Shown piece after piece: positions 32,700 through 33,340 of a stretch of DNA of 64,000 nucleotides. Position numbers and translations under genes: made by a program. The notes beneath the pieces are model-generated. The model saw only the letters and a list, made by a program, of their open reading frames with translations, did no database searches and was not told the DNA's origin. Numbering within the stretch: position 1 is the stretch's first letter; each line of letters starts with the position of its first letter. Source of the DNA: a bacterium (GTDB lineage: Bacteria; Patescibacteriota; Microgenomatia; UBA10105; UBA927); NCBI GenBank assembly GCA_021817785.1, contig JAKAFY010000002.1, positions 11,750 to 75,749 of the forward strand. Reading direction: 5' to 3'.

Positions 32700-33340
32700 C
32701 GATATTCAATTGTTAAATTGCTGCATGACCTTGTAGGGCCTGGCCCTGCAAGGGTGGTGTCTGTTCCGGACAGAAACGATTTCTGTACAGAAAAAACACG
32801 GCGACAAACAGATGACCCAACAAAGGGTATCGGCGTTGTCGCCGGGATGAGAGAGTTGTTTGGTCCCGAAAAAAACGGGACGAAAAAGCCAAGGAAGACC
32901 GGATTTCTCCGGTCTCCATTTCCTTGTTGTATCCGGGTTTGAACTCCGCCCGGATATATTGGCTTGTGTTGTCGGACCCAAAGTTGGGCCCAACAAACCT
33001 GGATATCTGTATACATCACGACTTGATCGTCTAGACGAGACGTGATTGTGTAGTCAGTATCCAGCATGGTGAATTCTCGTGAAACAACGATGGTTCCAGT
33101 ATCGCTGTTATACACAGTCAGCCTTTGGAAAAGACCGTTGTATATGACACCCTGAAACGGCTTGTCGTTTACGAGAATCGTGTAGCGATTAAATAATGCT
33201 GCCTGGTAACCGTATTTTTCTAGTCCACAGGACGTATAACCTTTATACGTGATCCATCCCAGGACAGCGATGAACATCAATGTCAGCACGGTGGCAAAGA
33301 TCAGAAAAAATGTGGCCAAATTCTTTAGTCTTTGGGCCAT
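32609..33340 (-). CDS. membrane-anchored hypothetical protein whose 3' half is built from palindromic elements
   Basis: N-terminal signal anchor plus a roughly 130-aa folded-looking part. The C-terminal roughly 110 aa are low-complexity and are encoded by the hairpin array and the nested palindromic element that overlaps the stop. Confidence 0.4.
   Translation of the reverse strand: MAQRLKNLATFFLIFATVLTLMFIAVLGWITYKGYTSCGLEKYGYQAALFNRYTILVNDKPFQGVIYNGLFQRLTVYNSDTGTIVVSREFTMLDTDYTITSRLDDQVVMYTDIQVCWAQLWVRQHKPIYPGGVQTRIQQGNGDRRNPVFLGFFVPFFSGPNNSLIPATTPIPFVGSSVCRRVFSVQKSFLSGTDTTLAGPGPTRSCSNLTIEYRSLRGASFRATRQSISSHRLLRPRQRRDSQ
32730..32996. repeat. array of at least 8 consecutive distinct perfect hairpin palindromes
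   Basis: AGGGCCtGGCCCT, CTGTTCCGGACAG, CAGAAAcgaTTTCTG/TTTCTGtaCAGAAA (mutually exclusive), CGGCGttgtCGCCG, GTCCCGa7CGGGAC, AGACCGGAtttcTCCGGTCT, ATCCGGG-N11-CCCGGAT, and GGACCCaaagttGGGCCC. Confidence 0.6.

Follow-up and report, generated by a model that had tools for sequence, protein, structure and literature searches.

For the four central hairpins of the array considered here, the closest described systems are tandem intrinsic terminators and the stem-loops of 3′ untranslated regions (UTRs). Parts of the array also recall the palindromic repeats of the REP/BIME and MITE-like types (E. coli REP, Neisseria Correia, cyanobacterial small dispersed repeats), whose general properties are described in PMC10969869, and the Rickettsia palindromic elements (RPEs), which are in-frame insertions in protein genes (PMC10969869). 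The array occupies positions 32730-32996 of a 64,000-nt stretch of contig JAKAFY010000002.1 (the whole stretch is called the window below), and lies within a minus-strand open reading frame of 243 codons, ORF 32609-33340. It is probably a composite: a hairpin in genuine coding sequence (U1), a conserved non-coding RNA module (U3-U6) whose likely role would be to terminate transcription or insulate what follows, two palindromic insertions, and a reading frame that has run on through them. The features are listed here in the direction of the gene, with U1-U7 designating the hairpins of the array and L-numbers (L007, L055, etc.) related metagenomic contigs.

32960-33340, minus strand: genuine coding part of the ORF, codons 1-127, with an N-terminal transmembrane helix and a small domain, ending ...CWAQLWVRQHKP (from codon usage and the homolog P0011)
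32969-32996, minus strand: U1, 12-bp hairpin with two G-U pairs inside the coding sequence, encoding CWAQLWVRQ, codons 116-124 (from folding)
32930-32956, minus strand: U2, 8-bp stem with an 11-nt loop, the first non-conserved (former 3′-UTR) hairpin, right after the last conserved codon
32883-32926, minus strand: U3 (also T1), terminator-like hairpin, stem 32894-32917, outer stem 32890-32896/32920-32926 (from the terminator scan)
32863-32881, minus strand: U4, small hairpin slot, GTCCCG-U7-CGGGAC
32846-32857, minus strand: single-stranded CU-rich linker AACUCUCUCAUC, conserved in the window, L007 and L029, with small changes in L025 and L055
32799-32844, minus strand: U5, 9-bp outer stem and inner ACCC/GGGU hairpin, then a U-run at 32788-32798; the second terminator-like hairpin
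32757-32799, minus strand: U6, long interrupted hairpin of 18 bp, helix 4 of the module (from folding)
32729-32753, no strand assigned: U7, palindrome CCTTGTAGGGCCtGGCCCTGCAAGG, an insertion specific to this lineage, missing precisely at the orthologous site in L055
32702-32722, minus strand: "TTTAACA box" AGCAAUUUAACAAUUGAAUAU, between module and leader, conserved in all aligned genomes
32608-32699, no strand assigned: nested palindromic repeat of 92 nt, GTCATTGCGAG...CTCGCAATGAC, absent in L055
32206-32598, minus strand: structured leader RNA, with a long P1 helix GAAAUGAGUCCCG.../...CGGGAUUCNUUUC and the invariant motif UUAACAAGGCAUACAGGGA (32277-32298)

The module resembles tandem intrinsic terminators in that U3 and U5 are G+C-rich hairpins followed by U-runs, lying in related genomes a few nt past a stop codon, and in that the stem sequence turns over while pairing and U-tract are kept. 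It differs in being a single unit of four ordered hairpins with conserved linkers in at least eight genomes, in its constant coupling to a structured leader, and, here, in the position of its first terminator inside an ORF. U7 and the 92-nt element are like the REP and MITE-like families: short, multi-copy palindromes, present or absent between relatives, that prefer intergenic or 3′-UTR positions. The other six hairpins are unlike them, being single-copy and mutually different, and no RAYT or transposase is in view. As with RPEs, a palindromic repeat is read as protein, in LepA and in the C-terminal 30 codons of ORF 32609-33340; unlike the Rickettsia case, the host belongs to the Candidate Phyla Radiation (CPR), the elements are of an unrelated family and much smaller (~80-92 nt), and most of the ORF tail appears to be a resident intergenic RNA module rather than an inserted element. 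Long structured 5′ leaders of surface and S-layer genes, and the 5′/3′ flanking stems of the rRNA-operon type, offer an analogy only. As there, 0.9-1.6 kb of non-coding sequence with conserved helices precedes secreted-protein genes, and the reverse complement of a leader motif lies ~100-150 nt past the last gene at 7-8 loci; however, neither sequence nor Rfam links the two, pairing between the ends is hypothetical, and the motif core is invariant, not covarying.

Hairpins were counted by script as perfect stems of at least 6 bp with loops of at most 12 nt. By this definition the 267 bp of the array contain seven (32735-32747, 32770-32786, 32780-32793, 32863-32881, 32896-32915, 32930-32956, and 32983-32994), and an eighth has a perfect 9-bp stem with a 28-nt loop (32799-32807/32836-32844), in agreement with the sequence-only reading, which had reported at least eight consecutive distinct palindromes. 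Mononucleotide shuffles of the same 267 bp gave a mean of 0.62 hairpins and a maximum of 4, with none of 2000 reaching 7; the window averages 1.0 per 270 bp (standard deviation 1.1), and the array ties for its maximum. The fold z-score for 32600-33010 is -7.8 for the minus and -7.2 for the plus strand, with no dinucleotide shuffle as good. That reading had also called the stretch tandem and low-complexity, which it is not: searches for tandem and direct repeats in the array yielded nothing meaningful, and no two of the hairpins are alike. Over 31400-33400, six contigs from different samples differ only by one single-nucleotide polymorphism at 31956, so the array sequence is not an assembly artefact; having the same ORF and being invariant across the array, they therefore yield no covariation.

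The first part of the ORF has the properties of a real gene. A GAGG ribosome-binding site lies ~9 nt before the ATG, and the preceding gene ends 8 nt upstream. Codon-usage log-odds are +0.1 to 0.25 up to about codon 100-115, then -0.05 to -0.4. A single homolog, P0011, with 135 aa and 47% identity (residues 18-131), came from an exhaustive HMMER search with residues 1-115. The alignment extends through ...MYTDIQVCWAQLWVRQHKP, and P0011 ends 8 residues beyond CWAQLWVRQHKP, without the tail; that orthologs might end near residue 135 had been proposed as a check, and this sole homolog does. On the contigs of P0011 the next gene starts 27 nt past the stop, with no hairpin array there. The U1 peptide is kept in P0011 as ICWSQLWVRQH, while the DNA at that place forms only a weak 5-6 bp hairpin. 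Because the peptide is conserved, U1 can be taken as true coding sequence. Residues 116-127 are conserved; from residue 128 onward there is no homolog and the codon score is negative.

From U2 onward, the sequence evidence is best read as that of a non-coding stretch, with the protein tail an accident of ORF extension. The ORF reaches 243 codons because there is no stop at its ancestral end (~codon 127-135) and the module is stop-free until the TGA in the inserted repeat: this stop (32609-32611) lies within the 92-nt element, which supplies the last 30 codons. The last ~115 codons are not conserved coding sequence, and in L055 the homologous array stretch has stop codons in all three frames. 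The array is indeed part of the ORF, as first described, but makes up its C-terminal half (codons 116-243) rather than its last third, and the description of it as something other than ordinary coding sequence applies from U2 on (codon usage, end of the homolog, L055 stops) and fails for U1, which is conserved coding sequence. With regard to a C-terminal segment conserved as protein through synonymous changes that destroy the hairpins, the U1 peptide is conserved, and the changes in the array relative to L055 are compensatory for stems, not synonymous.

It could be proposed instead that the tail is a real, selected C-terminal extension, disordered and encoded by hairpin-forming sequence, like those made by in-frame RPEs. 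Six independent assemblies agree in having the frame open over 243 codons, and this genome accommodates an in-frame palindromic element in lepA. As the sequence-only reading had noticed, stops are missing in several frames: all three minus-strand frames are open from 33018 to 32715, 303 nt in which about 6-7 stops are expected, and in dinucleotide shuffles of 32730-32996 (6.0 stops expected) none of 2000 was stop-free. This property is absent from the homologous L055 array, which has stops in all frames. With a homolog of 135 aa, non-coding codon usage, a terminator-like hairpin at codons 142-153, and substitutions that compensate for stems rather than being synonymous, a selected tail seems very unlikely; a search of the full ORF against 5.8 billion proteins returned only itself, with nothing resembling the tail.

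The case for a conserved RNA comes from comparison with related genomes. These were reached through a neighbouring 328-aa protein; a metagenome scan with the 22-mer TTAACAAGGCATACAGGGAAAC (32277-32298, minus strand), first met in the intergenic DNA of relatives, then returned 49 loci, among them L055, the closest relative. Window positions 32757-32850, comprising U5 and U6, are 89% identical to L055 987-1074. Between the two are three compensatory pairs (U5 C-G to U-A, U6 apical A-U to C-G, and U6 middle U-A to C-G), and several further U5/U6 changes are wobble-compatible. The U5-U6 RNA of both is predicted to form the same two hairpins, 6-12 kcal/mol more stable on the gene strand than on the opposite one, and the G-U pairs of the module fall on the gene strand. 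In L055, the three slots upstream of U5 (those of U2, U3, and U4) hold hairpins different from the window's, that at U2 again with 8 bp (GGAGGCCCgtgaGGGCCTCC). The linkers between them are conserved, including the U-tract (CTTGGCTTTTT vs. CTATGGCTTTAT; CTCTCTCATCC vs. CTCTCTCCTTCATACC).

The same order is found in L007, L029, and L025: a terminator-like hairpin with its U-tract, a small hairpin, the linker AACTCTCTCAYC, a hairpin with the conserved loop ATACCCTTT followed by TTTTCCTGA, a long hairpin, the TTTAACA box, and the leader. In an alignment of five genomes (the window with L007, L029, L025, and L055), the 30 predicted pairs are 86.4% paired and 13 are changed on both sides, a result equalled by none of 500 shuffles (slid controls, 1-5). 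A covariance model built from this alignment also found the module in L015, L008, and L009 (E 1e-11 to 3e-7), and with these, 16 of the 30 pairs are changed on both sides.

The individual hairpins contribute differently. U3 has 10 pairs (six G-C), a 4-nt loop, the tail CUUGGCUUUU, and a U-tract CUUGGCUUUUU at 32883-32893. No other minus-strand site of the region passed the terminator scan. The hairpin falls in codons 142-153 of the ORF and covaries in 5-8 genomes, with its U-tract kept. The U4 slot holds a different 5-7 bp hairpin in all five aligned genomes (GCAGCT/AGCTGC, GCAGC/GCTGC, CCGCC/GGCGG, and GCAGAGG/CCTCTGC in the others). The 9-bp stem of U5 is followed by a U-run, UGUUUUUUCUG, which like that of U3 is conserved in relatives, and its outer stem covaries across genomes (GGCACG/CGTGCC, GGCTTGACG/CGTCAAGCC). 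In U6, 9 of 14 pairs are changed on both sides over eight genomes.

In L007, L008, L009, and L029 the module starts 7-19 nt past a called stop codon; the window is unlike these relatives in having U3 inside an ORF without a stop until 32611. In L009 the module directly follows the homolog of the window's 328-aa gene, so the window has two extra genes (33348-33776 and ORF 32609-33340) before it. The constant link is to the downstream leader, not to any particular upstream gene. A second copy of U1-U6 was not found in the 390,901 bases of the window and related loci, and a metagenome scan for the two-hairpin pattern GTCCCG-N7-CGGGAC...GACCGGA-N4-TCCGGTC had no matches. At gathering score, an Rfam scan of the window recovered two tRNAs only; Rfam 15 scans by E-value (E ≤ 10) of 31300-33500, L010, and L029 gave miRNA-like noise. 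Literature searches on the repeat sequence and on Gottesmanbacteria non-coding RNAs found nothing relevant. The best reading of U3-U6, as judged from these alignments, is a conserved, previously undescribed RNA stem-loop module of related, Gottesmanbacteria-like CPR bacteria. The earlier suggestion of an unannotated structured RNA is thus supported for U3-U6, whose stems covary in 5-8 genomes, but not for U1, which is coding, or U7, an inserted repeat.

In the mechanism we propose for the composite, U1 is in the true 3′ end of a small membrane-protein gene, and U2-U6 would be a non-coding RNA of the gene strand, of the kind that in relatives begins just after the stop codon. U7 and the 92-nt element are later insertions of dispersed palindromic repeats. 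A gene without its ancestral stop would abut the module, its reading frame running on to the TGA in the inserted repeat. U3 would end transcription of the upstream genes, and U4-U6 might act as a structured spacer and second terminator, insulating the leader or forming its 5′ part; the module may also protect RNA ends. If U3 terminates efficiently, the product would be a non-stop mRNA on which ribosomes stall; if not, a protein with a 115-residue junk tail.

Several observations weigh against this reading. A terminator within an ORF would produce non-stop mRNAs, which would be strange except in a decaying gene or with a leaky U3. Two terminator-like hairpins before a conserved leader could equally mean conditional read-through, that is, regulation. 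Covariation was assessed on small alignments of 5-8 sequences, with the structure predicted from the alignment under test, and the eight-genome set was fitted to the model. The fold energy of the whole array is about equal between strands, so the strand assignment rests on U5/U6 and the G-U counts. Finally, the stop-free stretch (P < 0.001, post hoc) is unexpected for plain non-coding sequence.

A second, less probable but serious possibility is that U4, the linker, and U5 (with or without U6) are an independent or 3′-UTR-derived small RNA, or a conditional terminator gating the leader and the secreted-protein operon beyond it, and so would regulate rather than passively terminate or insulate. 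The single-stranded motifs AACUCUCUCAYC, AUACCCUUU, and UUUUCCUGA are conserved between covarying stems, the U-run after U5 doubles as the 5′ arm of U6, and the module is tied to the leader, not to a given upstream gene. However, a promoter scan recognised none between U3 and U4, and there is no conserved antiterminator pairing, known target or ligand, or Rfam match.

The conditional arrangement first suggested for this array was of another sort, a riboswitch- or attenuator-like pair of mutually exclusive hairpins. The overlapping palindromes CAGAAAcgaTTTCTG and TTTCTGtaCAGAAA are both present, and on the gene strand are parts of U6. U6 itself is kept by two compensatory changes relative to L055, whereas the alternative palindrome TTTCTGTACAGAAA, which is loopless, is down to 4 bp there (TCTGcaCAGA). 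A riboswitch or attenuator with exclusive helices was rejected, the alternative pairing not being conserved in L055 and no Rfam 15 family matching at gathering score. As far as the sequences indicate, the exclusive pair is a by-product of arm similarity within one hairpin, U6, and not a switch.

U7 and the 92-nt element have a different history from the module. Both are precisely absent at the orthologous site of L055, and are therefore insertions. U7 has a second copy, TTGCAGGGCcatGCCCTGCAAGG, at 58398-58422 (intergenic), and a partial match, GACCTTGTAGGGTCAC, at 27970-27987. Copies related to the 92-nt element are found in-frame in lepA (13908-13988), at L007 9025-9108, and elsewhere. The L007 copy at 9025-9108 falls in a glycosyltransferase gene, at its 5′ end as called; the start of this gene has probably been placed too far upstream. 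In lepA (12628-14646, plus strand), the GTCATTGCGAG-type repeat is read in-frame in LepA/EF4 as residues 418-454 (...SSVIASETKQSHDDNEIATSRDGGTRDDM...), a 37-residue insert absent from Thermus EF4 (5imq_B). LepA has two more short inserts, at residues 70-82 and 301-317. The recurrence of GTCCCG...CGGGAC in lepA, pointed out in the sequence-only reading, is at 13959-13976.

Such insertions raise the question of whether the whole array is a pile-up of mobile palindromes, REP/BIME- or MITE-like, at a neutral spot. U7 and the 92-nt element would fit, as insertions with other copies, and the U2, U3, and U4 slots hold unrelated hairpins in L055. GTCAT...ATGAC elements also lie between the TTTAACA box and the leader in both the window (32608-32699) and L007 (5198-5279). 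Against a general pile-up, U1-U6 are single-copy in the 390 kb of the window and related loci, no tandem or direct repeat relation exists among the hairpins, and order and linkers are kept in eight genomes that differ by compensatory changes, not by presence or absence. We consider it unlikely for the array as a whole; the palindrome pile-up originally proposed is confined to U7 and the 92-nt element.

Sites acting at the DNA level, such as attC-like or other recombination sites, cruciforms, or protein-bound operators, are the least probable of the explanations considered, and highly improbable. The palindromes are near-perfect and overall as stable on one strand as on the other, the GTTGGGC/GCCCAAC of U1 looks like integron core sites, and the neighbouring gene block is strain-variable and bracketed by an inverted 10-11-nt motif. 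On the other hand, U1 is coding sequence whose palindrome P0011 has not retained. An attC site was sought as R″ (RYYYAAC) and R′ (GTTRRRY) 40-125 nt apart and bounding an imperfect palindrome; the pattern has no match in 32550-33050 or elsewhere in the window, on either strand. Pfam matches to integrases or recombinases were likewise missing from the ~40 window ORFs scanned, and the 20-45 nt that separate the array hairpins contain no ORFs. The proposed attC-like cluster is ruled out by these results. Since pairing is conserved while stem sequence is not, and the G-U pairs are one-stranded, RNA structure is favored over sequence-specific DNA binding.

Should the composite reading hold, about half of the public 243-aa "protein" is an artefact of annotation, loss of a stop having let gene callers, and possibly ribosomes, cross a terminator-containing module and a repeat. 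Over-extended ORFs of this kind are likely to be common in CPR metagenome-assembled genomes with GTCATTGCGAG-type repeats. A streamlined genome of ~1.2 Mb here retains ~1-1.6 kb of structured non-coding sequence beside a variable surface-protein operon, which points to a function worth testing, and module and leader together provide a concrete candidate RNA motif in organisms with almost no known regulation.

The leader starts ten nt past the inserted 92-nt repeat and spans 32598 down to at least 32206, preceding an operon of small secreted proteins. It is common to more than 15 metagenomic loci (e.g., L007 5289-5555, L010 10984-11215, L029 1431-1667, and L055 720-951), with a P1 helix containing an invariant G-U, a GAACAAUUGCGUUC hairpin that covaries, and the invariant motif, followed by another covarying hairpin. 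In a nine-sequence alignment, 34 pairs are 91.8% paired and 15 are changed on both sides, matched by none of 500 shuffles. As no Rfam family matched the leader in the window, L010, or L029, and on the strength of this alignment, it is a candidate new RNA motif. Long hairpins (~85-95 nt) are predicted at 32301-32385 and 31763-31855. The first is an insertion relative to the compact leaders of other genomes; at the position of the second, L007, L010, and L029 have a CCCC...GGGG hairpin that includes TGTACAGA. A scan for sigma-70 consensus promoters of the leader gave no convincing site, and one candidate, TTAACA-N15-TAYCCT, was rejected because inserted repeats break it in the window and in L007.

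The invariant core of the leader motif, GCATACAGGG (32281-32290, minus strand), recurs in inverted orientation (27866-27875, plus strand in the window), 1.9-4.4 kb downstream. The inverted copy is ~100-150 nt past the last gene of the block in eight fetched loci including the window, about seven of them distinct (L007 5471/8962, L015 254/2638, L022 2800/5530, L029 1583/3478, L047, and L053; L029 has the same sequence as L038). In the window it is inside a terminator-like stem, CTAGGC...GCCTAG (27861-27913). The surrounding 27540-27990, where this leader-operon unit has its 3′ end, ranks second in the window for hairpin density. Inversion of the bracketed gene block was considered and rejected, because the genes between the motif copies always run in the same direction as the leader. 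The two copies might be explained by pairing between the ends of the RNA, 5′ with 3′, or by a shared DNA site.

Module, leader, and inverted GCAUACAGGG copy could even be parts of one undescribed RNA system of Gottesmanbacteria-like CPR bacteria, a transcribed, structured non-coding region of ~1-1.6 kb that brackets a strain-variable secreted-protein operon and controls termination or read-through, processing, or stability, possibly by 5′-3′ end pairing; this is a speculative extension, and we think it doubtful.

The genes around the array form a minus-strand cluster that includes a sortase, a DUF11 protein, and many small proteins, secreted or membrane-bound, that belong to no Pfam family. 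The DUF11 protein is 73% identical to one from Candidatus Gottesmanbacteria (CPR), the closest named relative found; the window sequence is also present in the metagenome-assembled genome GCA_027341155.1, on the 184-kb contig DAIENL010000002.1. Paralogy among the small neighbouring proteins was looked for and not found, nor did these neighbours have Pfam matches, and a blastn search of 31400-33400 against a phage database had no match. About 1.6 kb without a credible ORF separates the last convincing codon of ORF 32609-33340 from the next gene (31409-31047).

The secreted-protein block may differ between strains. Contig L005, from another sample, is the same as the window through array and leader, then diverges strongly in the secreted-protein block, from its position 5284 to the contig end at 5915 (window positions below ~31057), which suggests, from this one comparison, that the block is strain-variable. 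Elsewhere in the window, 16609-17190 (plus strand) encodes a 193-aa protein with a PaaX_M/Cas2-like domain (PF20803, 1.5e-21; PF09827, 3.9e-06), with no CRISPR array noticed nearby.

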